Part shown: positions 7,196-60,635 of the stretch, one piece after another
Position numbering within the stretch: the first letter of the stretch is position 1
How the letters are laid out: every line of letters begins with the position of its first letter
Assembly (NCBI GenBank): GCA_965197905.1
Contig: CBDAOB010000004.1
Location: forward strand, 800,001 to 864,000
Reading direction: 5' to 3'
Origin: Candidatus Latescibacterota bacterium
Lineage (GTDB): Bacteria; Latescibacterota; UBA2968; UBA8231
Length of the DNA stretch: 64,000 bases
Notes under the pieces: generated by a model
Told to the model about the DNA's origin: nothing
Database searches by the model: none
Seen by the model: the letters and a program-made list of their open reading frames with translations, nothing else
Made by a program: the position numbers and the translations under genes

Positions 7196-7345
7196 TCAGA
7201 GGGTGAGGACCACTGGGTGCGTACTGCGGTGCGCCGGATACAGATTCACCACGCCTTCTTGGCGCGCTTCCATGACGTCGTCGCCATCGTTGTTGTAAAT
7301 GATCCGGCGTTGCCGCCAGCGCTTCACTCGATCTGCGTCCATCAT
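7196..7345 (-). pseudogene. N-terminal relic of family M
   Basis: MMDADRVKRWRQRRIIYNNDGDDVMEAR matches the starts of the genes at 43974 and 56296, followed by an unrelated short tail. Confidence 0.85.
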
Positions 7346-7400
7346 AATTTCATTACCAGTTGGTACCAGGTTGGTCGTTGACGGCAGAGCCGCCCCGTGC

Positions 7401-8054
7401 TCATTCGGGATACTTCGACCGGATCTCGGCCTTGATCAGTGCCGCCAGCGGCCGGGCGCCGAAGGGCTCAAGGGGTTTCCCATTGACGAAGAAACCCGGT
7501 GTCTGGTGCACGCCCAGCGCTTCGGCATCAGCCAGGTCCTGCTCGATCACCGCTGTGATGTGCGGACTTCTCATGTCCGCTTTAACGCGCTCCACATCCA
7601 ACCCCATCTCGTTTAGCAGCGGCCAGATCTCCTCAAGCAGCACGCGGTGGTGCCGGGTCCAGGTGTCCTGTCGGCGGTAGAGCAACTCCAGGGTCTCCCA
7701 GAACGCTCCCTGCATTCGCGCCGCTTCCAGGATACGGACGACCTCGTCCGCCCCTTGATGAAACGGGGTATAGCGGATGACGAGCTTGATCTTACCCGGA
7801 AACGCGCCCATGGCCTGCTGGATGAATGGCGAAAAAGAAGCACAGGTCTCGCACGCTGGATCCGTGAACTTGACGATGTAGACCTTGGCGTCGTCGCTTC
7901 CCAACGTGGGCGAATGAGGCCGGACGAAGGCTGAGACGTTCTCCTGAGCCATGAAACCGAGCTCTGCCGCCCGCCATGTCTTGTAGTACCATGCGGCGAT
8001 GAGAAATCCTCCGACCAACACCACGCAGGCGCCGACAAACAGAATGCGTTTCAC
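7401..8054 (-). CDS. DsbA-family thiol-disulfide oxidoreductase
   Basis: N-terminal TM segment, FTDPACETC (CxxC), GVHQTPGFFVNG (cis-Pro loop). GTG start overlaps the dsbB-like stop. Confidence 0.9.
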   Translation of the reverse strand: MKRILFVGACVVLVGGFLIAAWYYKTWRAAELGFMAQENVSAFVRPHSPTLGSDDAKVYIVKFTDPACETCASFSPFIQQAMGAFPGKIKLVIRYTPFHQGADEVVRILEAARMQGAFWETLELLYRRQDTWTRHHRVLLEEIWPLLNEMGLDVERVKADMRSPHITAVIEQDLADAEALGVHQTPGFFVNGKPLEPFGARPLAALIKAEIRSKYPE

Positions 8055-8515
8055 GCTAGACTCCTCCTCTTCAGGACGACTAGGATGCACATCAACGCAG
8101 TGAACGAGAGCAGCGAGAGCAATGGGATCGACAGGAAACCGAACAGTTCCAGATAATCCTCCGTGCATGATACCCCCTCACCGCAGGGCTGCATGCTCGC
8201 CGGGATGATCCCCATGAAGAGCAGGTTGTGGTACACAGCCAGCAGCCAACCCGCGGCCGTCAATGGCAGAGCGTATCTGACGACATGCAGGTCGAGTGGA
8301 AAGAGCGCGCGCGCGAGGAGGAGGACTAGAGGGAACAGACAGATCCGCTGATACCAACACAGATCGCACGCGGCGAACTCCAAGACGAAGCTGAAGAATA
8401 GGCTCCCCAGTGTCGACACGGAGGCGACAAGCCAGGCGAGAAAAACGAGGCCCCAGTCCGGATCGAGCCCCAAGATGGCCGGTCGATCGGGGCAAGGTAA
8501 CTCTTGATCGTTCAT
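8051..8515 (-). CDS. DsbB/BdbC-family disulfide bond formation protein
   Basis: ACDLCWYQR, four TM helices, second Cys pair PCGEGVSC. Confidence 0.9.
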   Translation of the reverse strand: MNDQELPCPDRPAILGLDPDWGLVFLAWLVASVSTLGSLFFSFVLEFAACDLCWYQRICLFPLVLLLARALFPLDLHVVRYALPLTAAGWLLAVYHNLLFMGIIPASMQPCGEGVSCTEDYLELFGFLSIPLLSLLSFTALMCILVVLKRRSLA

Positions 8516-8552
8516 GGGTGACTGCGGGTTCGTCCTATTGTGGTGCGCTGCT

Positions 8553-8796
8553 TCATGTCGATTGCCTGGCGGCGCCGGGTCGGCCGAACTCCCAGGCGAA
8601 AAGCGTCGCCCGCATCATCTCGAAGCGCACGGTGATCTTCTTTCCGGCGAGCCCCGAGAGATCCGCACTGCCGCGCCAGCTTACGTCGCGCTCGAACTCG
8701 TCGCCTACAAGGGGGTCGCAATCGGCGAAATCGGGCCGAGCGTTCAGCCTCGGCAAAACCGGAATAGATATCGGCGTAATCAAGTAAGGGGCGCAC
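8553..8796 (-). pseudogene. Collapsed (head+tail) family P gene
   Basis: GAGGAG RBS, then head MRPLLDYADIYSG (cf. MEPFLDWYGIWPG in 27207-28706). In another frame, tail DCDPLVGDEFERDVSWRGSADLSGLAGKKITVRFEMMRATLFAWEF. Confidence 0.72.
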
Positions 8797-8896
8797 AGCA
8801 TTCTCCTCTCTATCAATCGGTTCCGTTCACACCACCAGATCCGATCGCGGATTGTGTACGCCGACGGTTCTTCTAGATGTCTGTTCAGTCGTATGG

Positions 8897-13902: not shown

Positions 13903-14063
13903 TTTCTTGACTCAACCGGAGGCGTGGCCGAGTCCGCACCTTCGCCAGCGAGCCTGCAGCATGAATCGACATCGAAGTATTGCCACCAGACCCGCTCGTT
14001 CCCCGTGGCACGCCATTCGCGGTGCTAGGCGCCGGCCTAACTGTTCCCGTTGCCGGTCATCGC

Positions 14064-14960
14064 TCAGCCGAACGAAGGCGCGACCCAGTCGTGCCCCAAG
14101 CTGCGTTGGAAATCACAGTATTCGCTGAGGATGTCGTCGCGGCTGACAAACCGCTTGTACACTAGACGACCGTTCCACGATCCTTCTGAGTTTGCGGCAG
14201 GATCGTCGGTGTAGAGGAAGAAATCCCACGCCGGGTTGCGGTCGGAGCAATTCTCCACAAATCCTCCTCCGCCCATTCCATGACATACCACCACGCCCTG
14301 CGGGCGTTCGAACATGATAGCAAAGGCCATGTCGCCGCGACGACCGAGAAACATCGGGACGGTGTAGCGAATCGGCGCCAGCGACGTGTAGAGGCCGTGG
14401 TCATGTTGGCCGAACTCCAGGTCGTAAGGATCCTCTTCCCAGGTAACGGCGCAGTCACGGCCTTGGTATGTTGTACAGAACTGAACCCACATCAGCGTGT
14501 CGTAGACATCCCGGCTCAACACGTAGATCGCCTTGTTCTCCGGTTCGTCGATGTAGCTGGCAAAGAAGAAGCCGGCGACACCCGTCGGAAAGGCTGCCGG
14601 TTCGTGCAGGCGATAGCGGAAGCTCCAGTCGAGATGAGCCCGCCCCGCAGTACGGTATGTCATCCAGCTCTCAACGTGATGTGTGGGGGTCGGAGATTGA
14701 TGCAGGGTAACCTGACGCTCAACCTCATCGACAATCAGCTGCGTCGGGTGAGCCCTCGGTTCCGCGGAATCTTCTGCTGACTTCGGCGCGATGAATTCAA
14801 AGTTCATACCGCAGTATCGCGGCACGAACAGCGACCTGGCGTCGTGGACGGATGTCATCCGCCAGATGCCGTTGTAGCCTGCTTCGCTGTGCTCGTGAGA
14901 AGAGTTGTCACCGACGACGAGGGTGAGCTCTTCTGTTGTCAGCTGGTGAAAGGATGCCAT
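14064..14960 (-). CDS. Hypothetical beta-rich protein
   Basis: Long ORF whose 3' third is duplicated at 29403-29775. Confidence 0.7.
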   Translation of the reverse strand: MASFHQLTTEELTLVVGDNSSHEHSEAGYNGIWRMTSVHDARSLFVPRYCGMNFEFIAPKSAEDSAEPRAHPTQLIVDEVERQVTLHQSPTPTHHVESWMTYRTAGRAHLDWSFRYRLHEPAAFPTGVAGFFFASYIDEPENKAIYVLSRDVYDTLMWVQFCTTYQGRDCAVTWEEDPYDLEFGQHDHGLYTSLAPIRYTVPMFLGRRGDMAFAIMFERPQGVVVCHGMGGGGFVENCSDRNPAWDFFLYTDDPAANSEGSWNGRLVYKRFVSRDDILSEYCDFQRSLGHDWVAPSFG

Positions 14961-15183
14961 TGGATGCGGCGCTTTGCTCGAAGAATTGTGAGCATAAACA
15001 GGGCGTTCGTCGGTCTCGGGGCAAGGTCCGAGATTCTCAGACTCCAGCTTTTCTCCAAGTTTCAATGTGTAACCGCTTCCATTTTTCGCATATTCCGCTT
15101 GCAATCAACTCAACTAGTCCGGCAACCGATCTGCCACACGACGATGCACAGAGCTCGAAATCCACATGAGGGACCCGATGTTT

Positions 15184-16476
15184 GGGTGTAGCCTCGTTTT
15201 TACGCTGCCCTTTTCAGGGTTGTTATGGGTGTGGTCTGCTGGAGATACCAGTTCCAGAAAGCATCCCATCGTTTCGATTGCACCTGGACTCGTAGGTTGA
15301 GGATCTGCTGACCTCCGTGGCGGGTCCATCGCATGCCGCTGCGTTTGAGTCGGTGGCCGACGATGGTCTTGGCGGCGGCCTCCACAGGGCCACTGGAGAT
15401 GATGTGATAGCCGCGTATTCCAGTCCCGGTTGTTGCGTTCGGTGGTCGCCTGGCGATAACGGTCCGATCGTCTTCGGAGTTTGCGACGGTGGTAGGAAAA
15501 AGAGCGGATCAAGCCCGCCACGGCGTTGGGTGTATGGCGCAGTTTGTGCCGCCAGGATCGATACCAGCGATCCGCCTTCGCCGACTTTTTGCCGAAAAGG
15601 TGCTCCGCCGCCATCGACAGATGCTGCGCCGCGTGATAGAAGTCCAGAATGCGGGTGAAACCCTCGAACACACCATGCTCGTCGACGATGCGCCAGATCT
15701 CTCGTTTGCCGTCGGCCAAAACGACACGATGGTCGTAGCCATGCAACGCCCGGGCCGTCTGCTCCACCAGGCCGTTGACCAGGGTCGTCATCTTCGCTTC
15801 CGGCATACGCGCGGCATAGCGCACATCGACTCGTTCCGGCTCTTCGACCTCTGGATCCAGCGGCGTCAGGTAGGTGGCGACCATGCCCACACCCGCCTCC
15901 TTCCAGGCGGTGGGCGTGGTGTCGGTGGCCGTGGCCATCGGTCGCTCGGCCGGACGTCCGCGCTTGGGCGCTGGCTCTCGCAGGGGGACGGTGACGCCGT
16001 CCCAGCTCACAACGAGCGTGTCGCCCTCGGCGTCCAGCGGCGCCGCGCCTTGCAAGGCCAGCTCGAGCTGTTCGGCCCCGTCCTCGGCACACTGTCCGAC
16101 GGTGGTCAATACGTGCTGGATAGCCGTACGCGATGGCGGCTCCGGCAGCACTTCACCCAAGCTGTCCTCGACTTCGGCCGGGACCAACCGGGCGCCCAAA
16201 AACGCCGTCACACGCTCCAACTCCGGCACCATGAATCGATTCACCATGCCGCAACGCTCATCCAGCGGCACCCGGCTCGGTCCGCCATGGTCTTCCTGAT
16301 ACAGCCGACGTGGCACTACGACCTTGCCCCACAGACTCATCCACTCCTTGTCCGGCAACCGATCTGCCACACGACGATGCACAGAGCCGGCGGCGAAGCT
16401 CGAAATCCACATGAGGGATCCTGCGTATTTTCCATCTGGGACCTCCTTCCGGGATGTCCTTAACGACAGAATTGGG
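15184..16476 (-). mobile_element. ISKra4/ISLre2-like IS, degenerate copy 1
   Basis: Nearly identical to 37862-39393 and starts with the same GGGTGTAGCCTCG end. It has internal deletions and a scrambled far end. Confidence 0.85.
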
Positions 16477-21039: not shown

Positions 21040-21537
21040 CGGAGAATAACGGCTACTTGCAAAAGCGCTTTCACCTCAGAATCCGATAGCGCACGGTTGT
21101 AGAGCATGGTGGCGCAGGTCGCTTAGGCAGCCATTGAAGGTGGGGCCATAGTAGGTGAGCGCCGAAGCCGATATAAAGCGGCTTGTCGTTGGAGATGTCG
21201 TACTGGCCGGGGTCGAAGGGAGTGGACCTCACGCTTGCGCGTTTCCACCCGTGGCCACATCGCCTCGCCGAGGTTCAAGGGGTTGGTCAAGCCATCAGTT
21301 CCGGTAGGCTCACATCGAGAGCATACCGAGTAGCCGCTGCACCGGCAACGTGGGCGCCCAGGATCGGTGCCTTCACCACGGCTACTTCAAAAGCGCTTTC
21401 ACCTCAGAATCCGATAGCGCACGGTTGTAGAGCCGCAGGTCGCTTAGGCAGCCATTGAAATAGTCGTGAGCGCCGAAGCCGATATAAAGCGGCTTGTCGT
21501 TGGAGATGTCGTACTGGCCGGGGTCGAAGGGAGTGGA
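20968..21537. repeat. Imperfect tandem duplication of a gene junction (about 20968-21227 vs 21305-21537)
   Basis: TAGGCTCACATCGAGAGC...GCCTTCACC and the 3' end of gene 21382-23031 each occur twice. The first copy carries small insertions. Confidence 0.9.
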
Positions 21538-23107: not shown

Positions 23108-23493
23108 TCAAATCGGGCGGCCGAATTCAGTAAAACCTACGAGCACCCGCACGAAGAAAGTCCATGTATGGATATTGCGGTCGTCCAGAAACGGTGAGTC
23201 GTAGCTGATTTTGTCAGAGTTCAACCCTACAAGGGTTACGAGATCGTAGCCAAAGTACGGCGTGCGGTTGGTGAGAGAAACAAACGTCGTGTGCTGTTTG
23301 AAGCTGTTGCGGGCGGAGGTGTCGTCGCGGCGTCGATACGGCAGCGGTCCCAGACCTTGGATACCGACCCGTAGGTGGGTTCTGGCCAGCAGCGGATACT
23401 CGGCGCGCAGAATGGGCACGGAGCGCAGTGCGGAATATCACTTCCCTTGGCCGTACCACTCCAAATGGCCAAGACCAACAGCAGCCGGAGCAT
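23108..23493 (-). pseudogene. Collapsed gene: signal peptide joined out of frame to a C-terminal fragment
   Basis: MLRLLLVLAIWSGTAKG followed by an open frame of about 105 aa with a beta-strand pattern ending VRVLVGFTEFGRPI. Confidence 0.5.
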
Positions 23494-27206: not shown

Positions 27207-28706
27207 TCAGATGCCCATGGCGAACAATTGGGCTTTTGCCAGCTGAAAGCGCATCGAGACCTCGCGATCCTTCAGCTCTGAAAGGTCGCCGCTGCCCTTC
27301 CAGGTCACCTGGCGGCAGAGCTCGTCGCCGCTGAGAACGTCGCACTCGTCAGCGCTATGACCCGGCAACTCAGGCATCGGCTGCGGGGGCGTTTGCGGTT
27401 TCTCGACCAGTGCCACCCGGATCCATCCTCCGGGCTCCGTTCGGTAGTTTATGAACAACCCTTTACCGCTGCAGACCCGCTCGACGGTGGTAAACCGACC
27501 TTCGTCGCACGCTTCGAGCGCCACCAGGCGGTTCGGTTTCCACAACGCCCAGAGGTATTCGCCGTCGGGGTCGTGTCTCGGGTAGCCGCCCCAGTCGTGC
27601 AGTCGGTGGACGCCAAGGCAACCGAGGGCCCAGTCATCGCCAAGGGGAACCAGCTCCGGGCTGGCAGAGATGCTGGCGTAGGCGCCCTCCGCCGCGTCGC
27701 GGGTGATGATGGGCCGCCGCTCGGGCCGGATCCAGTTCCAGCCGTCGCGGCTACTGGCGAACTGCACGTCGAGGGTGGCCGGAAGACGGTGAAACATCTT
27801 TGGGAACATCAGCCGCCGACCGCTGCCCGGAGCGCGGCAGTAGCACGAGTTGTACACATCCTGGCTCGGTGGATCGTCGGCATCGGCCATGAGCACCATT
27901 CTCGCTTCCCCCCAGCCACCGAATTTCGGACCTCCGGTGCGACGCACGCAGCGCCGGCGCTCCACGTGGCCGCGCAGGTAGGCCACATACTCGCCGGTGT
28001 CGGTATCGAAGGCAGCGATGTTCTGGGTGTCGAGCATTGTCTTGCCGGCATCGAACAACGGCTCGTCGAGAACGGTCCAGTGGAGGCCATCGGCAGAGAT
28101 CGCGCCCCGCAGGCTCAAGCGGACCTCGGCGGCGGCGGCGATCTCGGCCGGGGAGTGTCCGTCCAGGAGCATCGTATCTCGAAGCTCACGGATCTCGGCC
28201 CGGTTCTGCTGGCTGGCAGGAATCTGAATGCCGTTGCGAAAAAGGCGGGGACTGGCATCCACCGCTTTGTAGTGCGCGTCCGGCGGCGCCTGCGGATCGA
28301 TGAAGACCGACTGGAAACCGAAATCGTCTTCGCGACAGATGATGTTGTTGGCGGTGGAACCACTAAACTCGAACAACCCCAGGTCGGGACGGACCCAGTG
28401 GTAGCCATCTTCACTCTCAGCATAGCAGGAGAAATGCTCGTCGCGATCATCGGAAGCACGCCCGGCGTACCACATGCGATAACGGTCGCCATCGGCCAGT
28501 ATGGTCAGCTTGTTCAGGGTATGCTGCTCCCACGGTTGCTCGCGCCGGAAGAAGACGGCTGACTTGCGCGCTTCCTGTACCCTCAGGCGCACACCCACAG
28601 GTGGATCCTCGAAGAAGCTGTAACCGTCTTCGTCGCGACCCGATTGCCCCGGCCAGATGCCGTACCAGTCCAGAAACGGCTCCATGGTTGGTGTTGTCGT
28701 CGCCAC
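27207..28706 (-). CDS. Family P GH-like beta-propeller protein
   Basis: YAESEDGYHWVRPDLG, SADGLHW, SRDGWNW; tail RFQLAKAQLFAM. Confidence 0.82.
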   Translation of the reverse strand: MATTTPTMEPFLDWYGIWPGQSGRDEDGYSFFEDPPVGVRLRVQEARKSAVFFRREQPWEQHTLNKLTILADGDRYRMWYAGRASDDRDEHFSCYAESEDGYHWVRPDLGLFEFSGSTANNIICREDDFGFQSVFIDPQAPPDAHYKAVDASPRLFRNGIQIPASQQNRAEIRELRDTMLLDGHSPAEIAAAAEVRLSLRGAISADGLHWTVLDEPLFDAGKTMLDTQNIAAFDTDTGEYVAYLRGHVERRRCVRRTGGPKFGGWGEARMVLMADADDPPSQDVYNSCYCRAPGSGRRLMFPKMFHRLPATLDVQFASSRDGWNWIRPERRPIITRDAAEGAYASISASPELVPLGDDWALGCLGVHRLHDWGGYPRHDPDGEYLWALWKPNRLVALEACDEGRFTTVERVCSGKGLFINYRTEPGGWIRVALVEKPQTPPQPMPELPGHSADECDVLSGDELCRQVTWKGSGDLSELKDREVSMRFQLAKAQLFAMGI

Positions 28707-29318
28707 TCAATCCGCTCCCTCGGCTACCTCTCTCACGTTTGCCGGGTTGGCAGGGTCGACATCGAAGAACCGCCACCAGACTCGCTCGTCCCCTGTAGCA
28801 CGCCATTGGCGGAACTGGGCGCCCGCCAACTGCTCCCGTTTGTGGTCATCGCTCAGCCACATCCAGACCCGATCATGAACGCCACGGCGCACACCGGCCA
28901 TGCCGCAAACAGCGCTTCGACCTGTGGCCGATCTGCCGCGAGCGATTTCATGGTCGCCTCGAAGCTGTTCTGCACGCGCGCTGAGTGGACCGGATCGTCG
29001 CCCCGCACTCGTCTCAGCGCCGCGGCGATTACCGCCTCGGGTGGGTCGCTTGATCGTTTGCCCTCCTCCTCCCCCGCCGGAGTAAAGCTTCAGAGCGTGC
29101 ACCTCGGCGAGCTCCTTTACGATGAAGGCGGCGCTGCAAGCAGAGAACTTGCCGAGGTAGTCCAGTAGTCTGGCGCGCTCGGCCGGCTCCAGATTGGCCA
29201 GCACGAGGTCGGCACTGCGCTGGAGAACCTCACGCCATTCAGGGTCGACCGTGGCCCGATCCAGGTACTCGGCCCGAGCTGCTGCGTAGTTGGTATCGTT
29301 CTCCATCTCGGCGTTCAT
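28707..29318 (-). CDS. Hypothetical protein, possibly with an internal out-of-frame stretch
   Basis: Protein-like N- and C-termini with a low-complexity Gly/Arg middle. Confidence 0.45.
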   Translation of the reverse strand: MNAEMENDTNYAAARAEYLDRATVDPEWREVLQRSADLVLANLEPAERARLLDYLGKFSACSAAFIVKELAEVHALKLYSGGGGGGQTIKRPTRGGNRRGAETSAGRRSGPLSARAEQLRGDHEIARGRSATGRSAVCGMAGVRRGVHDRVWMWLSDDHKREQLAGAQFRQWRATGDERVWWRFFDVDPANPANVREVAEGAD

Positions 29319-29402
29319 TCGACCAGTAGGAGTAATGGCGCAGGGAAGATATGAAGCGGTAGGAACTGAGGCGAATACAGATAGGACGGAGTGTTCGGGC
29401 TG

Positions 29403-29775
29403 CGCTCAGCCGAACGAAGGCGCGACCCAGTCGTGTCCTACGCCGCTTTGGAAATCGCGGTATTCGCTGAGGATGTCGTCGCGGCTGATAAACTGCTTGT
29501 ACAGCAGCCGACCGTTCACGATCCTTCTGAGTTTGCGGCAGGATCGTCGGTGTACAGAAAGAACCCCCACGCCGGGTTGCGGTCGGAGCGATTCTCCACA
29601 AATCCTCCTCCGCCCATTCCGTGACATACCACTACGCCCTGCGGGCGTTCGAACATGATAGCGAAGGCCATGTCGCCGCGACGACCGAGAAACATCGGGA
29701 CGGTGTAGCGAATCGGCGCCCGCGACGTGTAGAGGCCGTGGTCATGTTGGCCGAACTCCAGGTCGTAGGGATCCT
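29403..29775 (-). pseudogene. Diverged duplicate of the 3' end of gene 14064-14960
   Basis: Direct repeat of 14061-14434 with substitutions and small indels. Confidence 0.92.
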
Positions 29776-35435: not shown

Positions 35436-35438
35436 GCC

Positions 35439-40393: not shown

Positions 40394-40693
40394 TCATTCG
40401 ACCCAGTAGGAGTAGAGCTGCGCGCGCCGGGCTCGAAAGCGCAGCGACACGGAGCGGCCTTCGATACCTGCCCACGAGCCGTTCTTCCATTCGAACGCAC
40501 CGCGCAGTTGGTCCCCTTCGAGCGGATGGGACAAAGCCAGTACGGTTCCCGCTTCGTCCAGCACTTCCACAGCCAGCGAACCCGGCGCATTGAGATTCGC
40601 GCAAAGGGTGGTTCCCGCCGCTTCGAATGCCGAAGTAACCAGGACACCTTCCTCCTCGCCGATGGGAACCGCGAAGGCGGTCTGTTGACTCAT
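40394..40693 (-). pseudogene. Collapsed (head+tail, in-frame) family P gene
   Basis: RBS and MSQQTAFAVPIGE fused to EEGVLVT...RAQLYSYWVE. Paralogues have [G/S/N]xRQLF at the head and AGxxEG at the tail. Confidence 0.8.
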
Positions 40694-42311: not shown

Positions 42312-42323
42312 GTCAGCCTACTC

Positions 42324-43974
42324 CTAGCCACGAACCCGCAGCTGCGCTGCGTCAAGCACGACGGCAGAAGAGGCGGACTCGCCGCGGTTCTGCACCGCCA
42401 CGTCCAGCTGATTCTCACCGCGACGGATCTGCCCGGCATCGAGCTTGCCCTGCAGCCACTGACCTTCCTTGGGGTTTCGGTGCGGATCGGCCGGTTCCAG
42501 CCCATCGACAGCTGCGCCGTTGAGTTTCACCGAGAAGTCGTCACCGGGAACCCAATCCCACAGATGCAGGCTGAAATCGATGCTGGCCGATCCGACATCC
42601 TCGCCCACCTGAAAACCCGCGGACACCGGTAGGGTTACCTCTCGGACCTCGGAGAAGCTATTGGGGCCTGCGAAACGCTCGATGCCGTAGAGCTTGTCTT
42701 TTCCGGCCATGGTTGCCGTTTCGCCGATCTCGCGCCACCATTGCGGCTCGCCGAAAGCGGGATTGAAGATGTAGAGCCCATCGGCGCCGGCGTTGAACAG
42801 ATTCGAGGCGGCACCGCGCCAGGCGGGGAGTGTGCCCTCCCACCCGTTGAACACAAGGATGAACGACGGTTTGCCGGCGCGTTCGACCTGCCCCCCGTAG
42901 AGGGTCTCTACCCACGACCTGGACTCTCTGTATTTGCCATCGCTGAGGCCGAGAAAGGCCCAGCTATCTCAGAAGCCCCAGGACACACAGGGGTAGACCG
43001 GGACCTCGTATTTGTGTCCCAGGGCGATGATGTCGCTGTAGGAACTACAAAACACCGAGTCGTAGTTGCCGCCGGGCATGAGCTGGTCGATCAATCCCTC
43101 CGCCAGCCACGTTTCCAGGTCGACCCCGACATGGATCGAATCGGCGAGGTTGAACGGCGTGTGCGCCGCCAGCAGCAGTGGGCGGCCGCGGCGGTTGGCC
43201 TGCTCGTCCGCCATGCGCCGGATGCGCCGCAACAGATCATTCATCAGCTCCAGATGCTCCGGCTCGACGGGATTCCCCTCCAGCGATTCGCGGAAGAACG
43301 GGAAATACTTGAAGAACTCCATGCCGATACAGTCGACGTCGTAGTTCTGCGCCACTTCCTGAATGATGGAAAAGATGTACTCGCGCACTTCGGGAACGGC
43401 AAAGTCCAACCCTGTCCAATTCGCTTTGGGGCTGCCGCCGTATTTATCCCAATCGCCCTCTTTGCCCATCATGAATTCGGGATGCTCCTGTTTGAACGGA
43501 GCCAGACCGTAGGTCCATCGACGCGAACCGGGCGGAAAGGCGTCGTGGACATCGTTCATGCGCAGGGCCCAGACCGCCTCCATGCCGTGCTCGTGGCTGA
43601 AATCAAGCTGTATTTGCAAGGTGTCGCGACCGTACTTTTCCACCAATTCCAGCGGGATCCCCTTGCCGTAGAATCCGCCCAACTTCGTATGGTGCGAAAA
43701 GGTCGTAGAATCCGCCCAACTTCGTATGGTGCGAAAAGGTCAGACCCGCCATGCAAGGGGAGAACCAGTTGCTGTCCACCTGGGTGCCGATCAAGGGCGT
43801 GCTGCGGGCATCGAGAAAATCTTGTACCAGATCTCCGGTGGCGCGCACCGTCAGCGCTTCGGAAACGTCATACTCATGTTCCACTCCGGAGCGCGCTTCG
43901 ATTACATCGTCGCCGTCGTTGTTGTAAATGATCCGACGTTTCCGCCAGCGCGCCTTCAGTCGGTCTGCATCCAC
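42324..43974 (-). pseudogene. Family M GH-like protein (copy M2), several frameshifts
   Basis: Collinear with 54663-56296. Perfect 37-bp tandem duplication at 43667-43740 plus indels near 42965 and 42825. Confidence 0.82.
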
Positions 43975-44402
43975 GTCTTAATCTCCCCGTCCTTAGTCTC
44001 GCACCCAGAATAACAGAAACCCGAGTGTCTGATTCAAAGGTCTTTTGTTTTGCCTCTGGTGCCGGTTGCTACTTCGCCGCATGGTGATCTTCTTTCCGGC
44101 GAGATTGCCTGGTCGCCGGTGGCCTGCACCGCCTTCCGACGGCAGCATGCATATGTTGCTGCCGATGGCGTTCTCCACAATGGCCCTGGAAAAGGGCTGG
44201 GGAATCATCCATCCATTGAGCGACCAGATAGATATCCGGAGAGATCTCCGAATACGTCGTGATCTACGGTCCCAGAAACGAAGAGGAACTCCGAACGATC
44301 TGGATAATCGCTCAGGTCTCTTATACTTTGCGCGCGGCGTGAGTATGGAGAGTTCGACGGCGATCACACCCGCGAGCTTGGGCGAGGTTAAGGACAGCTG
44401 CG

Positions 44403-46703: not shown

Positions 46704-46802
46704 TCAGCGAACGCGCAGCTGCGCTTCGATCACGTCGTCGCCGTCGTTGTTGTAAATGATCCAACGTTTCCGCCAGCGCGCTTTCAGTCGGTCTGCATCC
46801 AT
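46704..46802 (-). pseudogene. Collapsed (head+tail, in-frame) family M minigene, 32 aa
   Basis: MDADRLKARWRKRWIIYNNDGDDVIEA+QLRVR*. Keeps the same upstream sequence AACCGAGGGCGAGGAGATTGAGAC as the gene at 56296. Confidence 0.9.
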
Positions 46803-46824
46803 GTCTCAATCTCCTCGCCCTCGG

Positions 46825-47286
46825 TTATGTGGATCTGGTAGTACTCGCCGGCTGGAAAAGTTCCATGCTGATGCCGTCCGGATCTTCCATATACACGCCC
46901 CAGGCCCCCTTGTTCACACCCGCAGTGATCTCGACGGGCGACGAGCGAAATTTCACGCCCGCGGCGCGCAATTCCTCATAGGCCGCCTGTAAATCATCCA
47001 CCACAAAAGCCACGTGCGAACTCCCCACATTATTGGTGCGCACATCGGCCGCCTGCCCCTTGGGCACCGCGTATTCGAACAGTTCGATGACGTGGTCCGA
47101 GCCGGCAATGCGCAGATGTGCCGCTTCCACCACGCAGTCGGGAAAAGCGACGATGTCGCGGAAGTACTGATTGTCGATGCGGCGCTGCCAGAGCACTTCG
47201 CAACCCAGCAAACCCACATAGAATTCGAGCGAGCGTTCGAGATTGGCCACTGTATAACTCGTGTGGTGCGCACCGACGACTTTCAT
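46825..47286 (-). CDS. VOC/glyoxalase family protein
   Basis: HHTSYTV, IELFEY, HVAFVV, DPDGISMEL; GAGGAGG RBS. Confidence 0.9.
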   Translation of the reverse strand: MKVVGAHHTSYTVANLERSLEFYVGLLGCEVLWQRRIDNQYFRDIVAFPDCVVEAAHLRIAGSDHVIELFEYAVPKGQAADVRTNNVGSSHVAFVVDDLQAAYEELRAAGVKFRSSPVEITAGVNKGAWGVYMEDPDGISMELFQPASTTRST

Positions 47287-47297
47287 ATTCCTCCTCT

Positions 47298-48065
47298 TCA
47301 GAAAAGCTGATACGCCCCCCAGCCGCCGTCCACCCGCAGCACTTCCCCCACGATGTAGGAAGCTTCGTCGCTGGCCAGATAGAGCACGGCTTCGGCAATC
47401 TCCTGCGCCGTGCCCAACCGCCGCATGGGGGTGCGACGCTCGTACATCTCCAGCGAGGCGGTGCCTTCGGCCAGGCCTTTCTCGACCATTTCGGTCAACA
47501 CCACACCGGGCGCCAGCCCCACCACCCGCACACCGCGATCTGCCCACTCGATGCCCAACGCCTGCGTGAGCATGATCAGAACCTTGGCCGCACTGTAAGC
47601 CGCCCGTCCCTCAACGGCGAGATATCCGTTGACCGAGGCCATATTGACGATGATGCCCCACCCGCGCGCCAGCATCGGCCGGGATACCGCCTGGGCGCAG
47701 TAGAATGCGCCCGAAAGCATCACCGCCACACTGTCATCCCATTGCTCGGGCGGTAAATCCTCGGCCGCTCCCTTGTAGGCCACCCCTGCGTTATTCACCC
47801 ACACATCGATCTGCCCGCGCTCATCGACCAGTTGCTCCACCAGAGCGAGACTCTGCTCCGGCTTGCGCACATCCAGGGCGGCAAATTCGGCTTCCAGCCC
47901 CTCGCCGCGTAACAGCTCCGCTGCTGCTGCGCCGCGCTCAATGTCGATCTCGGCCAGCACCACATAAGCTCCGTCACGCCCGAAATAGCGGCCGATCTCC
48001 AGGCCCAGACCGCGCCCGCCTCCCGTGACTACCACCGTCTGCCCGGCGAACCTCACCTCACCCAT
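47298..48065 (-). CDS. SDR oxidoreductase
   Basis: [17 protein letters not shown]. Confidence 0.92.
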
Positions 48066-48949: not shown

Positions 48950-49705
48950 TCACGCGCTAGCCGCTTCCACGGCCGCCAAGGCACGCTCGCACAACGCCGC
49001 GACCGGACCCGTAGACCAGCCCAGCCAACCGTTGAGTGATCGCTCCTCTCCGAGCTCCAGGCGCTCCGCCATCGGACTACAGTGGACGCAATTCAAGGCC
49101 GGATCGGTATTTCCGCAGTATTCGTTGTGGGTCTCCCACGCCATTGCAGTCGCACCACCGGTGGTGGCTTCCACCGCGATCACCGACGGGCCGGTATCCG
49201 CATCGGGCATGCTCAGAAACGACGACTTGTCGGGGTCGTGATGGTCGTGGCACTCCGCCTTGATGCCGTCGGTGGCGACGTTCTTGAGATTTCCGCCGAC
49301 CCAGCAGTAGGTGCGGTCCCCCATCTGATCCAGGAAGGTGTTCGCTTCCGCTAGCTGATAGCAGGTTCCCACCGTGATCTGTTCCAATGCCCGGTCGGAG
49401 GTGTTTACCAAATCGTACCGCGGAACGAGATGATCCTCGCCGATCTCGACGACCGCGTCGAGCCGAAGAGTATCTCCATCGACCAGTCGTGAGCGCAGCA
49501 CCTTGCCATTCTCCTCGGTGCTCCATTCCATAGGACCGGAACGAGCCTGACGGTAGATCGAAGCATCCTTGTCGCCGGCCTTTTCCGGTATCCAGAGACG
49601 AAAGGCCTGAGAAGGGAACGCGTCCACGGAAATCTGCAGCACCGACATCTGTAGCGGCGGATAGAGCACCAGCGGCAACGTCCTAGGGGCGACGGAAACG
49701 TACAT
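48950..49705 (-). CDS. Hypothetical protein whose first codons copy those of gene 52149-52943
   Basis: 24-bp identity between 49686-49709 and 52924-52947. Alternative ATG at 49648. Confidence 0.65.
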
Positions 49706-49881
49706 GACTTGGTTTTGTTGGGCCGTTCAGATAATCATCAGAACGATGCCCATAAGGACGAAAGTGGGTATCGGGTTCAAAGTAAACAGCGCGAATACGA
49801 ACATAGTGGTGTGCGTCAGAAACTCCCTATCATTCAGTGCTCACCCTCTTCACCTTCCGCACTCAGCTGTCTTCGGGCGGC

Positions 49882-52148: not shown

Positions 52149-52943
52149 CTATTCCATGATCAGCGTTTCGAACCAGTCTCGTATCCTGATCTTGTCGGCC
52201 TCGTTACCGAAACCAAGGTTGTACCAACCCTGATAACCTCCGCTTTCGAGTCTTTCGAATAGCGACGGGAAGTCGATAGTGCCTTCACCAGGAACCAGAT
52301 GGATCTCATACTCGCCGGTGTTGTCGTTGACCCGAACCTGGCCGATGTTGTCGGTCCCGAAGGCGTCGAGGAAACTGGACCATCCTTGGGGTACGAGATG
52401 ACCATGGGCGACGTTGAAAGCCCATTTGAAGTTGGGGGCTTCGATCTCGTCGAGGAACCAGTGCATTTCCTCAACGTTGTGCGGGATATAATGAATTTCG
52501 GCGAGGTCGGGTTCTTTGTTGTGGTTCTCGAAGTAGACCATCTTGCCCAGCTTATCAGCCCGATCCACGAGTCTCTTGATGCGGTCGACCGCGGCCTGCC
52601 GGCGAAGCTCAGTGTCGCCGAAATGATAGCCGCCGTGACCGATGATCCAGCCGGCGCCGATCGCCTCGGCCAACTGCAGGTTCGCTTCCAGGTAATCATC
52701 GACGGCTTCCGACATGATGGGGACGTATTCCGCGTTGTTGATCGCTGAAACAGGATGGACACCTATCTGGAGCTCCGTTTCCTCCAGGAGGGCACGCGCC
52801 TTCGAAGCACGTGCTTTGCCAAATGAGGCGATGTCGTTCGGCGCATTGTCAGCGTTGAAATCGATGAATTTGAAGCCGTTGTCAGCACCCCACTCGATTG
52901 ACCTTTCGATGGGAAGGTCTTTGGGGGCGACGGAAACGTACAT
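52149..52943 (-). CDS. Sugar-phosphate isomerase/epimerase family TIM barrel
   Basis: HGG, FENH, NVAH, VNDN, HLVPGEGTIDF. Confidence 0.85.
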   Translation of the reverse strand: MYVSVAPKDLPIERSIEWGADNGFKFIDFNADNAPNDIASFGKARASKARALLEETELQIGVHPVSAINNAEYVPIMSEAVDDYLEANLQLAEAIGAGWIIGHGGYHFGDTELRRQAAVDRIKRLVDRADKLGKMVYFENHNKEPDLAEIHYIPHNVEEMHWFLDEIEAPNFKWAFNVAHGHLVPQGWSSFLDAFGTDNIGQVRVNDNTGEYEIHLVPGEGTIDFPSLFERLESGGYQGWYNLGFGNEADKIRIRDWFETLIME

Positions 52944-54599: not shown

Positions 54600-54656
54600 C
54601 TAGGCCAGCACGGCGAAGGAATAGTGCGACTGCCGCAGATAAAAGCGTTCGGCCAT
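54600..54656 (-). pseudogene. Collapsed (head+tail) 18-aa minigene of 56371-57807
   Basis: MAE+RFYLRQSHYSFAVLA* versus MAEPT...RFCLKHTQLYSFAVLA*. The last 24 bp are identical. Confidence 0.82.
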
Positions 54657-54662
54657 TGTTGG

Positions 54663-56296
54663 CTACTCCTTCCCACGAACCCGCAGCTGCGCTGCGTCAA
54701 GCACGACGGCAGACGAAGCGGACTCGCCGCGGTTCTGCACCGCCACGTCCAGCTGATTCTCACCGCGACGGATCTGTCTGGCATCGAGCTTGCCCTGCAG
54801 CCACTGACCTTCCTTGGGGTTGCGGTCCGGATCGGCCGGTTCCAGCCCCTCGACCGCTGCGCCGTTGAGTTTCACCGAGAAGTCGTCGCCGGGAACCCAA
54901 TCCCACAGATGCAGGCTGAAATCGATGCTGCGCGCACCGGCAGATCCGACATCCTCGCCCACCTGAAAACCTGCGGATACGGGGAGGGTAACCTCCGGGA
55001 CTTCGGTGAAGCTATTAGGGCCTGCAAAACGCTCGATTCCGTAGAGCCTGTCTTTTCCCGCAATAGTTGCCGGTTCGCCGATCTCGCGCCACCATTGCGG
55101 CTCGCCGAACGCGGGATTGAAGAGGTAGAGCCCATCGGCGCCGGCGTTGAACAGATTCGAGGCGGCACCGCGCCATGCGGCGAGTGTGCCCTCCCAGCTG
55201 TTGAACGTGAGGATAAACGATGGTTTGCCGGCGCGTTCGGGCTGCCCCCCGCAGAGGGTCTCTATCCACGACCCGAACTGTCTGTATTTGCCATCGCTGA
55301 GACCGAGAAAAGCCCAGCGATCCCAGAAGCCCCAGGACACACAGGGGTAGACCGGCACCTCGTATTTGTGTCCCAGGGCGATGATGTCGCTGTAGGAACT
55401 GCAAAACACCGACTCCAAGTTGCCGCCGGGCATGAGCTGGTCGATCAATCCCTCCGCTAGCCACGTTTCCAGGTCGACCCCGACATGGATCGAATCGGCG
55501 AGGTTGAACGGCGTATGCGCCGCCAGCAGCAGTGGGCGGCCGCGGCGGTTGGCCTGCGCTCATCCGCCATGCGCCGGATGCGCCGCAAAAGATCGTTCAT
55601 CAGCTCCAGATGCTCCGGCTCGACGGAATTTCCCTGCAGCGATTCGCGGAAGAATGGGAAGTACTTGAAGAACTCCATGCCGATGAGGTCCACGTCGCAG
55701 TTCTGCGCCACCTCTTCGATGATGCGGAAGATGTGCTCGCGCACCTCCGGCTTGGCGAAATCCAACCGGGTCCATTGTCCTCTCGGATGGTGTTGACCGT
55801 GCTTCTCCCAGTCGCCTTCCTCACCCATCAAACAGTCGGGATGATCTTGTTTGAACGGCGCTATCCCGTAGGTCCAGCGGCGGCTTCCAGGTGGAAAGGC
55901 GTCGTGAACATCGTTCATGCGCAGGCACCAGGCTGCTTCCATGCCGTGCTCGTGGCTGAAGTCCAGTTGGATCTGGAGGGTGTCGCGGCCATACTTCTCC
56001 ACCAGTTCCAGCGGGATCTCCTTGCCGTAGAACCCTCCGAGTTTGGTGTGGTGGGAAAAGGTGAGACCCGCCATGCAACTGGCGTACCAGTTGCTGTCCA
56101 CCTGCGAGCCAATCAGAGGCGTGCTGCGAGCATCGAGGAAATCCTGTAGCAGATCTCCGCTGGCGCGCACCGTCAGGCCTTCGGAAACATAATACTCCTG
56201 CTCCACTCCGGAGCGCGCTTCGATCGCATCGTCGCCGTCGTTGTTGTAGATGATCCGGCGTTGCCGCCAGCGCGCCTTCATCCGGTCTGCATCCAT
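54663..56296 (-). CDS. Family M GH-like (TIM-barrel-type) protein (copy M1), frameshift near 55558
   Basis: RRIIYNNDG, LRMNDVHD, LDFAKPEVR, GADGLYLFN. Confidence 0.8.
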
Positions 56297-56370
56297 GTCT
56301 CAATCTCCTCGCCCTCGGTTTTTCCATCCGAGAGTCCTCCTGGTGTCTCACGATCTAGCGGCCGAGGTAT

Positions 56371-57807
56371 CTAGGCCAGCACGGCGAAGGAATAAAGCTG
56401 CGTGTGCTTCAGGCAAAAGCGCAGGCGCACCGGCTGCTCGACGTCCCGCAGCTGCTTGCCGCTTTTCCAGGTCACCGTATGGCGCAGGCCATCCGACGTG
56501 ATGGGCTGACACTCGTCTCGTGTCAAACCCTCGATCGGTTCCCCGTACAGGTTCAGTGCCTCCACCTGCAGCAATCCCTGGGAAGCATCGGCGTTCACTA
56601 CCAAGCCGCCGCCGCCGTCAAAACGTAGCCCCCTGGTCACCAGCATCCCTTCCTCGTCACCCGCATCGAGCGACACAAAACCATCCAGTCGCAGTTGCGC
56701 CAGACCGAGGAAATCCCCCACCATCTCGCATCCATCAATCGTTTTGCCAAGGAAATCTGCAATGTTTAAGTGCGGCACATTCGACCCCCGATAGTAGATC
56801 CAGATCTCGTCGTCCCGCACGAACGCCTTCTCTCCATAGACGCGTCTTGCATCCCACGTCCCCGGAGTTCCCCTCAGAAAGCACTGGCGGCTGCCCACCC
56901 GCGACCATTCCTTGCCGTCGCGACTGAAGGCCAGTTGCAAATCGAGGGTGTAGTTGAAGCCGGCGAGCGGTCGGGGATCGTCCGTGAACTCGTGGTAGAC
57001 GGTGAGAAACCCGACATAGCAACCCTGGTAAGGCAGCACGTGCATATAGTAAAAATCAATGCCGGGGCCGTCCCTGTCGTCAGGGGTGATGATCTCCTCC
57101 ACGCTCGTCCAATGCACGAAGTCGATACTCTCGCTGCGCCCGACGCGCCGCGTGGGAAAGGCCGAGGCGTCGGCGATCCCGCTCCACCGCTTTATGTGAT
57201 GGCCGTTGGGCCGCACGTACAGCACGTAGCGGCCATACCGCTCGTCCCAGAAAGGCAGGCTGAAGCCGTCGCCCGTTGGTTTCAGCACGGGATTGTCATC
57301 GTGGGGCGTCCACTGCAGTCCGTCCGGGGAGAAGGCGACGGCTACCCCGCCAGCGCCAGCGAAGTGCACCATCTTGTAGCGGCGTTCCGGGTCCGTCTCC
57401 GTGGTCTCTTTGAGGACCGGACCGCGCATGGGTGTGTGCAGCGCGATCAGATTGTTCGCCGCAGACCCATCGTATTCCACCAAACCCAGATCGGGACGGG
57501 TGAAGTTGACACCGTCCTCTGAAAGGGCATAGGCCAACGCCGGAACTCCTTCTGCGGTGGCTCGCGCACTATACCAGTACTTGTAGACCTTCTCCTCGCT
57601 ATCAAAAACCAGAGCCATGGGCACGATTCGCTGCCCCTCCCAGGGCTTCTCGATTTGGAAGACTGGATTTCGATCGTGTTTCACCGGCTGGTGGACAAAG
57701 CGCGAGATATTCTCCAGTCCGTCGATCAAATAATCGTCGACGAACAGCTGGCGTTCGTTGCCGATGTCCAGGACTACCGGCAGGCGGGGTACAGTGGGTT
57801 CGGCCAT
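56371..57807 (-). CDS. Family P GH-like beta-propeller protein
   Basis: RQLFVDD, YALSEDG, ERRYKM, LRLDGFVSL. Confidence 0.85.
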   Translation of the reverse strand: MAEPTVPRLPVVLDIGNERQLFVDDYLIDGLENISRFVHQPVKHDRNPVFQIEKPWEGQRIVPMALVFDSEEKVYKYWYSARATAEGVPALAYALSEDGVNFTRPDLGLVEYDGSAANNLIALHTPMRGPVLKETTETDPERRYKMVHFAGAGGVAVAFSPDGLQWTPHDDNPVLKPTGDGFSLPFWDERYGRYVLYVRPNGHHIKRWSGIADASAFPTRRVGRSESIDFVHWTSVEEIITPDDRDGPGIDFYYMHVLPYQGCYVGFLTVYHEFTDDPRPLAGFNYTLDLQLAFSRDGKEWSRVGSRQCFLRGTPGTWDARRVYGEKAFVRDDEIWIYYRGSNVPHLNIADFLGKTIDGCEMVGDFLGLAQLRLDGFVSLDAGDEEGMLVTRGLRFDGGGGLVVNADASQGLLQVEALNLYGEPIEGLTRDECQPITSDGLRHTVTWKSGKQLRDVEQPVRLRFCLKHTQLYSFAVLA

Positions 57808-57828
57808 TATGCCCTCGGCCTGGTGCTC

Positions 57829-57954
57829 AGTGAGATTGTCACTTTACGGTTTCTTCTTTGAAAGCGAGCTCGCCGGGCGAAGGGAGAAAGTCCTCGACAA
57901 CTTCAAGATCCCCAAGGGCTTCGTCACTGTACTTTATTTTCGCGCTCATGGATT
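57829..57954 (-). pseudogene. 5' relic of the brnA-like gene at 60709-60972
   Basis: Diverged direct repeat of about 60851-60977 (MSAKIKYSDEALGDLEVVEDFLPSP...). Confidence 0.88.
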
Positions 57955-57957
57955 GCC

Positions 57958-58440: not shown

Positions 58441-58813
58441 CGTCGGTATCCTTGGCGAATTGGTTTGACCGGGCGTATGCCTCAGCTTCCTGCAGGGTTC
58501 TCAGACTGGGTGACGACTCAGTGCCATCATAGAAACAGAACAGAGAAGCGTACATCACCATATCGTCCTCTATATACAGTCGGAAACAGCCGTAGTATCC
58601 GGGTCCCCTGCCGTCAGGAGAAGGGGCCCATACCGCGATCTCAACGCGATCATCAACACGGTTAGCACGTCCGAGATAGACACCCTCTCGAACGAGGTAG
58701 GGCAGTTTCTGTCGAGCCAGCGCATACCTTGGCGTTTCCGGCTGGTGGTCGACGAACCGGTGGGCAGCGGAAAGCTGTTTCACGGCGTCCCACCAGACGT
58801 GCATTTCTCCCAT
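58424..58813 (-). CDS. Hypothetical 129-aa protein, putative toxin
   Basis: First gene of a two-gene overlapping unit with its own promoter. No motif recognised. Confidence 0.6.
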   Translation of the reverse strand: MGEMHVWWDAVKQLSAAHRFVDHQPETPRYALARQKLPYLVREGVYLGRANRVDDRVEIAVWAPSPDGRGPGYYGCFRLYIEDDMVMYASLFCFYDGTESSPSLRTLQEAEAYARSNQFAKDTDDEDQD

Positions 58814-58847
58814 TTGTTGAATATATCAACAATGCGCTATTGTGCAA
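58814..58847 (-). promoter_or_regulatory. Leaderless sigma70 promoter with overlapping operator palindrome
   Basis: TTGCAC-16 bp-TATATT-6 nt-ATG. Inverted repeat TTGTTGA-N5-TCAACAA at 58814-58832. Confidence 0.65.
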
Positions 58848-59015
58848 CTTCGTGCGTTATGCTCTGGGCAAACAAGGCGTGGCTGACTGGAGGATCGATG
58901 CGAGGTCCGGTCGGGACCGGTGATCTGACTCAATTACCTTGCCATCGGTTCGATCGATCGGCTTTCCATCATTCCCCAGCTTGGACATGTTGCTTCGGTG
59001 CTCGTGAAGTCCCCC

Positions 59016-60488
59016 CTACTCCTTCGCCACGTACAATGCGTACACCTTCGCGTCCTCAGGCCTGAGCCCGTCGCCGTAGTTCACCTGCAAGCGGAACGTC
59101 TCCCCCGCCGGCAGCTCCTCGCGCTCCTTCCAGCGCACTGGCAACCGGAAGCCATCCTCGGTCAGCGGCACACAGGCATCCCCGGAGTACCCCGGCAGCG
59201 GATGGAACCCCTCGTCCAGCACCTCCACCGTCAGCGGCGAATGCTCGTTCAGATCAGCGTTAGCAAACACCTTCAGCGGACCGTCGCCGGCACGCAGGGG
59301 GCAGGTGATGAAGTGGGGCCGCGGCCGCGTGATCGGAAAGAACTCCCCCTCGCCGAAGATCATCTCGTCGAAGGTCTCGAAACACCCAAGCCGGTCCCGA
59401 TGCCAGCTGGCGCAGCGGACGTCGCTGCCGTAGATCATCCCGTACCACATCAGGGTCCGGTCGCCGTGGTTGACCATCGCCGGCCCGTGGCCGTGGGTAA
59501 TCGCTTTGCCGTAGCGGTTGGGTTGTTCTAGCTCGCCGATGGCGGGGATCAGCTTGAAATCAGGAATCGGCTCGCGATAGCGCAGGGCGTCGTTTGAGAC
59601 CACCAGCCCCAGGTCCATATCGATCCGGCTCTGGTCACCCATCGGGTTTCCGTGCCACATGTCGTAGACCCCGATGATCACATTGCCCCGGCTCCATAAC
59701 ATAGCGCCCTGGTGGGCTTCCTCCGACATGTTGTGGTGCGGCACCATGGGGCGTGGCGACACGTTGTCTCTGCTGAAACTGAGACAGGAGGCCTGGGTCC
59801 AGGTCTCGAAATCGTAGGAGGCGAAGGTCACCATCTTGCGGGCGATGCCGAAGTGGGAACCGTGGTAGCCGAACTCATCCTGGGAGGTGACGTAATAACA
59901 GCCGTTGTGTTTGACTACGCTGCCGGTCTCCTGGGCGGAGCCTACCGGGTTGTTGGGAGACGCCCGCCAGCGCAGGCCGTCGGCGCTGTAGGCCACCGCA
60001 AGGCTGTTAACGAATTGGTTGGCCTCGATGCACATCTTGAAGCGGCGGTCGGGATCGGGGTCATCCGGATCGTAGAGCACGGGCGCGCTGGTCAGGCAGG
60101 GCTGGCCGGCGAACAGGTCGATGATGTTGTTGTTTTTGTTGCCGTTGAACTCCACCAGGCCCAGCTTCGGTTTCTCCCAGTTAATGCCGTCCTGGCTGAC
60201 GGCATACCCCAGTCGCCGGCCCCCTTTGTCCTGGCTGCTCCAGGCCTGGTACCACATGCGCAGCTCGCCATCGAAATCGATAACGGTTCCATAGAAACAG
60301 ACCAGCTTGTCATCGGGCTCGCCGGGACTTCCGCGGCGCAGGACGATCGGGGGTTTGTTGTACGGGGTCTTTCCCGGAGTCAGCTGCAACCGCAGTCCGG
60401 TGCTGAACGGGATGCCGTGGTTGTCGAAGGGAAACAGCACCGCTTCTTCGACCGCAACGTTGGCAACCCCGTTTTGCACGTCTAGCAT
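59016..60488 (-). CDS. Family P GH-like beta-propeller protein (close paralogue of 61282-62751)
   Basis: YAVSQDGINWEKPKLG, DPDRRFKM; collinear with its paralogue. Confidence 0.88.
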   Translation of the reverse strand: MLDVQNGVANVAVEEAVLFPFDNHGIPFSTGLRLQLTPGKTPYNKPPIVLRRGSPGEPDDKLVCFYGTVIDFDGELRMWYQAWSSQDKGGRRLGYAVSQDGINWEKPKLGLVEFNGNKNNNIIDLFAGQPCLTSAPVLYDPDDPDPDRRFKMCIEANQFVNSLAVAYSADGLRWRASPNNPVGSAQETGSVVKHNGCYYVTSQDEFGYHGSHFGIARKMVTFASYDFETWTQASCLSFSRDNVSPRPMVPHHNMSEEAHQGAMLWSRGNVIIGVYDMWHGNPMGDQSRIDMDLGLVVSNDALRYREPIPDFKLIPAIGELEQPNRYGKAITHGHGPAMVNHGDRTLMWYGMIYGSDVRCASWHRDRLGCFETFDEMIFGEGEFFPITRPRPHFITCPLRAGDGPLKVFANADLNEHSPLTVEVLDEGFHPLPGYSGDACVPLTEDGFRLPVRWKEREELPAGETFRLQVNYGDGLRPEDAKVYALYVAKE

Positions 60489-60518
60489 TGCTTCAGCTTT
60501 CTCTGGGGTTCTAGGATT

Positions 60519-60635
60519 TCAAATCGTTCTCAAGCCCGCCACGTACAAGGCGTACACCTTCGCATCCTCCGGCCTGAGCCCGTCGCCGTAGTTCACCTGC
60601 AAGCAGAAGGTCTCCCCGCCAGAGAGCGCGCGCTC
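60519..60635 (-). pseudogene. 3' relic of a third copy of the 59016/61282 gene
   Basis: Encodes GETFCLQVNYGDGLRPEDAKVYALYVA. Confidence 0.9.

Follow-up and report, generated by a model that had tools for sequence, protein, structure and literature searches.

Head-and-tail gene remnants in a gene-turnover region of a Candidatus Latescibacterota genome as probable scars of intragenic deletion

Variable regions of bacterial genomes are known in several forms, among them flexible genomic islands and tandem paralogues under birth-and-death or accordion evolution, and integron cassette arrays, in which the cassettes are bordered by attC sites. Here, we analyzed a stretch of 64,000 nucleotides (nt) from a Candidatus Latescibacterota bacterium (G000:C4:800001-864000 of a 6.69-Mb genome in five contigs; hereafter the window), in whose spacers short relics join the head of a gene directly to its tail. 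We consider it probable (about 0.75) that these two-ended relics were left by deletions inside genes, in a region of gene birth and death rich in duplication and transfer. Of the interpretation offered by a first-pass annotation of this DNA, the turnover array was borne out, while the surprise that both gene ends are kept, the proposed translational coupling and the proposed anchored swapping of cargo were not.

Among described processes, the erosion of pseudogenes under deletional bias (Danneels et al. 2018, PMC6054270; Kuo and Ochman 2010, PMC2916853; Degnan et al. 2011, PMC3164680) resembles this locus, in the portions of these papers drawn on here, in that dead genes are deleted and leave remnants in spacers, and in that a share of the junctions carries short microhomologies favouring multiples of three; microhomologies were reported at 43% of pseudogene deletions, with a 3n bias in their spacing (PMC6054270). 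The same portions deal mostly with small insertions and deletions (indels) in shrinking or clonal genomes, and few Salmonella pseudogenes had been shortened by more than 20%, whereas the 6.7-Mb genome studied here, which continues to acquire genes, shows kilobase deletions and clean head-and-tail scars. Pseudogenes have also been described, in the sections consulted, as being removed adaptively (PMC2916853), and approximately 25% of deletions as raising fitness (PMC3386194). Selection-driven gene loss (Koskiniemi et al. 2012, PMC3386194) and microhomology-mediated rearrangements (PMC3411829), as far as the sections consulted go, resemble our locus in that large deletions occur spontaneously at short repeats, a part of them with a benefit; those results were obtained in laboratory Salmonella, whereas the deletions described here are known from sequence comparison. 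Homology-facilitated illegitimate recombination (PMC6382021, in part) has in common with it the presence of RecA, microhomology joints and uptake of foreign DNA. Unlike in that process, the joints observed here delete within one gene, and no foreign segment was found at a relic end. A named system of head-and-tail relics was not found in the literature searched, which excludes most subscription papers.

The genes of the window lie mainly on the minus strand and stem from expanded families, namely sulfatase, PhyH, SDR, TIM-barrel, DUF6785 and unnamed proteins of ~500 amino acids (aa). Two families, here called P and M, count 87 and 14 full-length copies in G000, respectively, according to our own gene caller and clustering. 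All five head-and-tail relics proposed by the first-pass annotation are present, all on the minus strand (Table 1; relics are named by their first coordinate), and relatives carry either the full-length parent or both of its ends ~1.3-2.5 kb apart. Three of the five (46704, 40394 and 23108) have an intact orthologue in the congener G002, and relic 54600 is tied to its family by a near paralogue together with junction evidence.

In relic 46704, a head (46802-46726) is fused to a tail (46725-46705) at the AGCGC junction described earlier, which leaves a 32-codon open reading frame (ORF); 1,524 nt are lost compared to the intact 545-aa gene of G002 (C1:230839-232476), which follows the same glyoxalase gene. 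Since its tail and 41 nt of downstream spacer are 93% identical to a separate tail-only relic located 1 kb left of the window (G000 C4:798940-798980), this relic may combine head and tail of two paralogues. Relic 40394 lost 1,062 nt relative to G002 C1:242972-244333 and is in frame, as had been claimed, at a 7-nt microhomology coding for GE. Relic 23108, which had been graded as the weaker case, is supported as well as the other four: 2,545 nt are lost compared to G002 C1:250.3-253.3 kb, and exact microhomology is absent at its junction. For relic 8553, the head (8810-8751) and the tail (8732-8545) have matches that, by their coordinates, lie 1,262 nt apart in a further genome, G004, and the presumed parents are placed in G004 and G032; at the same anchor, G002 retains the head alone, followed by other genes. 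Relic 54600 is the in-frame P-family remnant that had been described. Its head is 96-97% identical to the junction between M tail and P head in G015 and G032, and its final 24 nt are identical to the paralogue 56371-57807; the exact parent was not found. Thus, three of the five window relics are in frame and two (8553 and 23108) are out of frame. A codon comparison, aimed at relaxed selection on the relics, gave 21 synonymous to 10 non-synonymous codons for the 40394 tail and 7 to 1 for the 23108 tail, compared to 54 to 23 for an intact control, and the differences mostly predate the deletion. As a side observation, the glyoxalase gene upstream of M in G015 (L013, C1:189364-189892) is itself collapsed to head and tail, out of frame and with a 5-nt microhomology.

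The statement that these relics are not simple assembly copies is correct: they differ from all other G000 copies, and their true parents are found in other genomes. Moreover, the 40661/40662 junction of relic 40394 is covered without differences by contigs of three runs (X1, 40100-40761; X2, 40386-40999; X9, 40530-40755). A further X1 contig (44346-46750, 0 differences) passes the M junction of relic 46704 by 25 nt, which falls below our spanning rule of 31 nt. One of the runs X1 and X2 may represent the source sample.

The surrounding region indeed behaves as a gene-turnover array, which duplicates, exchanges and loses modules, with full genes at the same anchors in relatives. G002, a member of the same genus that is 91% identical, carries a shuffled but syntenic region at C1:228-280 kb, and tandem near-identical copies vary between strains, as exemplified by three M copies within 13 kb of G002. 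The window modules 46723-47554 and 54647-56339 are 88-97% identical to G015 C1:187796-189892 and G032 C1:3757858-3759538, although both genomes belong to other genera and their core genes pgk/tpi are just 63-65% identical, which therefore argues for recent horizontal transfer. Contigs in the read sets join window modules in other orders, and since X1 and X2 contigs run from 54647 into an intact-type P at 57797, the full and the collapsed form may occur together in one sample. Within the SDR-glyoxalase-M-P module, the collapsed member differs between lineages. Relics are also dense here, with 9 raw matches in the window compared to a median of 1 across 102 windows of 64 kb; after cleaning, it holds 5 relics (top windows, 5-7), and few parts of G000 are as rich in relics as the window with its surroundings. 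The locus accordingly shares with birth-and-death or accordion evolution its tandem near-identical modules, reshuffled order and transfer between lineages, and no evidence of reversible amplification under selection was obtained here.

Two further rearrangements were observed. A single X1 contig joins the end of the 59016 gene to an M start (56320/59015) via 29 nt that resemble what an extreme, in-frame collapse would leave of a glyoxalase gene, a remnant that would end 3 nt ahead of the M start. In addition, the tandem genes at window 27158-28699 have 7 nt of their first codons in common, and G002 lacks the first gene, the second having taken over its start.

To what extent deletions within genes are ordinary events could be read from the comparison of G000 with G002, which covers 2.86 of the 6.7 Mb of G002 (43%). 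From 188 raw indels of at least 150 nt, 66 multi-copy mobile segments and 37 cases with repeated flanks or tandem arrays were removed, leaving 85 single-copy events with unique flanks, of which 25 have both ends within one gene (8 in frame). Contrary to the idea that breakpoints would depart from a random null, the relative position of these 25 deletions is uniform (Kolmogorov-Smirnov p=0.44). The median share of the gene removed is 0.32, and more than 70% was removed in three cases, two of them window relics; given this continuous spread of sizes, the collapsed relics represent the tail of the distribution. Microhomology of at least 5 nt was present at 3 of 23 junctions compared to 0.15 expected (p=5e-4) and absent altogether at 12 of 23. 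For joints with such microhomology, chance alone would place 49% in frame, in agreement with what the relevant part of PMC6054270 reports.

A census of gene fragments of at least 80% identity in both genomes returned 365 fragments, of which 158 were broken full-length genes and 207 were kept as relics: 50 heads, 71 tails, 57 internal pieces and 29 two-ended. The two-ended class (14%) thus lies below the 38 expected if the ends survived independently. The earlier argument that random deletion should not keep both termini so often relied on an unbounded null, which is the wrong one here; when simulated deletions were barred from the neighbouring genes, two-ended relics made up 58-76% where 0-15 nt of spacer were free (exponent 1.0), 12% at 150 nt and 1-4% at 1,500 nt, and at 150-200 nt the simulated mix (both ends 12-14%, head 20-29%, tail 21-26%, internal 32-46%) fits the observed one. 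The actual spacers of these families measure 88 and 56 nt in the median. Survival of both ends would therefore be unsurprising if deletions that run into live neighbours are removed by selection. Moreover, 4 of the 15 strictly defined two-ended relics are three-piece relics, and one gene bears two separate deletions (events 146 and 147).

Several observations weigh against such a simple account of deletion and filtering. With events 20 and 160 added back for the size test (n=27), deletions that take out over 70% of the gene number 5 of 27 compared to 0.9-1.3 under a single-step power-law null (p=0.002-0.012), and outside the window 3 of 25 compared to 0.9-1.3 (p=0.055-0.13). Neutral serial erosion produces mosaics for the most part and 11-52% two-piece relics, compared to 11 of 15 observed; an assumed selection term favouring size is required to lift this share to 45-84%. 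The in-frame state of three of the five window relics points in the same direction. In addition, the census depends on our own gene caller and BLAST cut-offs, with 14 of the 29 two-ended relics coming from a loose end search, and within the 2.86 of 6.7 Mb of G002 compared, the direction of deletion was taken from intact ORFs, without an outgroup.

Taken together, these results are best accommodated by a model in which modules of expanded, uncharacterised enzyme families enter by horizontal transfer and local duplication, and redundant copies are then broken by frameshifts, by insertion sequence (IS)-like elements and by the deletion of 0.2-2.5 kb, in some cases at microhomologies of 5-8 nt; both of these steps are shown by the comparisons above. 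The deletions may arise by slippage or end-joining, with no need for a dedicated recombinase: G000 encodes one Ku (C5:2294008-2294550) and two recA (C4:53749 and 457288), so that end-joining is available and could be the acting pathway. Deletions reaching a live neighbour or its ribosome-binding site would be purged, as in the simulations, so that the surviving ones would end inside the dead gene and both of its ends would be lost last. Finally, mild selection against a useless reading frame might favour large single deletions and thereby yield clean two-piece relics. The excess of near-complete collapses agrees with, rather than demonstrates, the adaptive removal of pseudogenes put forward in the consulted parts of PMC2916853 and PMC3386194.

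As an alternative, the relics could be selected minigenes, whose start, ribosome-binding site and stop are kept for translational coupling or against polarity in long operons, as the first-pass annotation had suggested. Besides the in-frame window relics, this would be in line with the tight spacing of relic 54600 (6 nt past one stop and 14 nt ahead of the next start), with the out-of-frame head of relic 8553 (window 8512-8796, minus strand), which stays open for 94 codons until a stop that overlaps with the start codon of DsbB, with one G002 relic that is in frame 2 nt before an intact gene, and with the in-frame glyoxalase remnant implied by the single X1 contig 3 nt before the M start. However, when all two-ended relics are pooled (3 of 5 in the window, 3 of 14 others from the census, the G015 glyoxalase out of frame and one X1 remnant in frame), 7 of 21 are in frame, which is exactly one third. 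In the strict census, 4 of 15 end in frame at the stop of the parent, one of them with an intact co-directional gene close behind, and among census relics with a co-directional gene at most 31 nt downstream, one of five is in frame. An in-frame joint, tight spacing and an intact co-directional downstream gene coincide in none of the five window relics and in one of the 15 from the census. Moreover, relic 46704 faces a convergent gene (nitrilase), relic 40394 ends its gene run and is followed by an unrelated opposite-strand block, and two relics are out of frame; coupling therefore cannot explain these. Both neighbours of relic 54600 are frameshifted, one frameshift being present in run X2 as well and the other absent there, and the head frame of relic 23108 stops ~200 nt short of the next gene. 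We therefore regard selected minigenes as an improbable explanation.

It appears similarly unlikely that the gene ends serve as recombination anchors, at which cargo is swapped or a full gene is restored from co-resident strains by reversible accordion changes or homology-facilitated capture. Modules do move between genera, full and collapsed forms may co-occur according to the X1/X2 contigs (54647-57797), the P head behind PhyH continues into DsbB/DsbA in G000 and into other genes in G002, which is the one suggestive anchor, and a start-to-start 7-nt microhomology deletes one whole gene in G002. However, when the 149 double gaps between G000 and G002 were reduced to 29 non-homologous replacements by removing 120 diverged homologues, in none of the 29, within the 43% of G002 compared, was a head shared inside a gene seen to lead into another body, and most breaks lay on a gene border or between two of them. 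In G000, G002, G015 and G032, the 56371-type P gene or its head breaks off after ~10, 55, 110 and 130 nt, respectively, and no shared breakpoints for the same gene were found among the lineages compared. Heads of 10-80 nt would also add little to kilobases of flanking homology. Both the PhyH/P-head anchor and the start-to-start deletion of 27207-28706 fit ordinary deletion filtered by selection.

With regard to site-specific capture, the region shares with integron cassette arrays its co-directional gene runs with turnover and an IntI elsewhere in the genome. Unlike in such arrays, the breakpoints lie inside genes, no attC or attC-like site was found at any of the relics, and the sole IntI above cut-off is on a different contig (G000 C3:204281-205219), with one attC-like site ~5 kb from it. 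A crude attC-like pattern matched 16 times in the window, never at a relic border, and 12-25 times in four control windows; there was no Rfam match. Integron activity was accordingly rejected.

Also doubtful, although conceivable, is a recombinase-free on/off library at the population level, in which modules would be switched off by selected one-step collapses that keep the gene ends, the operon would stay readable and the full gene would return by recombination from co-resident strains. This proposal rests on the different module member collapsed per lineage, on the forms that may share a sample and on the mild excess of near-complete deletions. Finally, chimeric joining of paralogues during assembly, favoured by the many copies of both families and by the lack of read support for junctions 54600, 8553 and 23108 among the matches listed (8553 and 23108 lying outside the stretch compared), is very improbable given the 40394 junction in three runs, parents that belong to other genomes and the occurrence of the same class of relic in G002 and G015.

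Overall, a new gene-swapping system is mostly not supported by these results, which point to known deletion-driven decay with minigenes as by-products.

Table 1. Positions of the relics and of related features in the window.
Feature	Position	Strand	Details
Collapsed M-family (GHL10-like) gene	46704..46802	-	77-nt head + ~21-nt tail, in frame, 5-nt microhomology
Collapsed P-family gene	54600..54656	-	18 aa, in frame; both neighbours frameshifted here
Collapsed P-family gene	40394..40693	-	99 aa; 39-nt head + 261-nt tail; contigs from 3 runs cover the junction
Collapsed P-family gene	8553..8796	-	head and tail in different frames
Collapsed ~975-aa family gene	23108..23493	-	signal-peptide-like head + 322-nt tail, out of frame
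Head-only M relic	7196..7345	-	100 nt, 92%
Tail-only copy of gene 14064-14960	29403..29775	-	94% to 14061-14434
Head (24 nt) of TIM-barrel gene 52149-52943	49686..49709	-	24/24 nt match
Head-only copy of 60709-60972	57824..57957	-	89%; antitoxin-like, weak Pfam matches below cut-off
Tail-only copy of 59016/61282 family	60537..60636	-	87-94%; present in G002 too
Internal P fragment, 26 nt	44078..44103	-	96% to 8626-8651, which lies within the tail of 8553; no terminus
~85-nt dispersed segment ending in P-family-like tail	29314..29397	-	contains the first-pass interval 29315-29336; 4 places
Intact P paralogue, nearest relative of relic 54600	56371..57807	-	87 intact family copies in G000
Full-length M paralogue broken by 37-nt insertion	42318..43974	-	
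Full-length M paralogue with frameshift	54663..56296	-	caused by a 2-nt insertion that run X2 lacks
Glyoxalase/VOC gene, upstream anchor of M relic 46704	46825..47286	-	itself collapsed in G015
P-family gene	27207..28706	-	lost in G002 by start-to-start deletion at 7-nt microhomology
Repeated IS-like element	15183..16352		strand not assigned; 95% to 37862-39044, 97% to two other loci
DDE_3 (IS630-type) transposase	684..1772	+	

Among the seven one-ended relics that had been proposed, five stand as described, whereas the one at 44078 is an internal fragment and the one at 29315 is part of a longer repeat (Table 1). The relic at 60537-60636 occurs in G002 as well and therefore predates the split of G000 and G002. 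Further copies of the longer repeat, the ~85-nt segment, are located at G000 C5:677888-677968 and C3:129502-129585 and at G002 C1 ~2828061-2828145. The segment is pyrimidine-rich and has an identical left border in three unrelated contexts, and weaker partial copies lie directly ahead of gene starts. It had no Rfam match and folds weakly, and with no Rfam match at gathering score anywhere in the window, structured RNA was rejected as a candidate.

Regarding the two families, M proteins match GHL10. For P, no name was obtained from Pfam, NCBIfam or PDB sequence search (NCBIfam matched 0 of 4 P-type proteins); its Atlas neighbours are unnamed, BNR/sialidase-like clusters scoring at most 0.92 provide a lead only, and one member has a weak GH32 match below cut-off.

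Other features of the neighbourhood were also recorded. A block of opposite orientation (29859-37815, plus strand), partly of lower GC content, encodes TetR, peptidases, DUF3419, haem-oxygenase-like and GDSL proteins and is absent from the syntenic G002 region. The amidase gene at 37096-40120 (plus strand) is interrupted by a copy of the 15183-16352 element. The end of a laminin-G gene carries a 260-nt direct duplication (90%; 20967-21226 / 21304-21537) that is single-copy in G002. Segments 24301-24484 and 44403-44463 belong to a repeat scattered between genes, of which G000 has more than 15 copies; it may be a miniature inverted-repeat transposable element (MITE) or an element of the repetitive extragenic palindrome (REP) type. 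In G002 (L016, C1:279664-280356), two short ORFs behind a P head are apparently split at one stop.

The region clearly illustrates the death of accessory genes in a natural setting and provides a usable null, namely that two-ended relics are to be expected wherever the neighbours are under selection, so that such scars alone are no evidence of a swapping system. The scars also generate short false ORFs for annotators. Moreover, the region records that uncharacterised enzyme families were recently exchanged between genera. If it holds true in more genomes, the excess of near-complete one-step collapses would represent field evidence for the adaptive purging of genes without use, which so far comes mainly from Salmonella.

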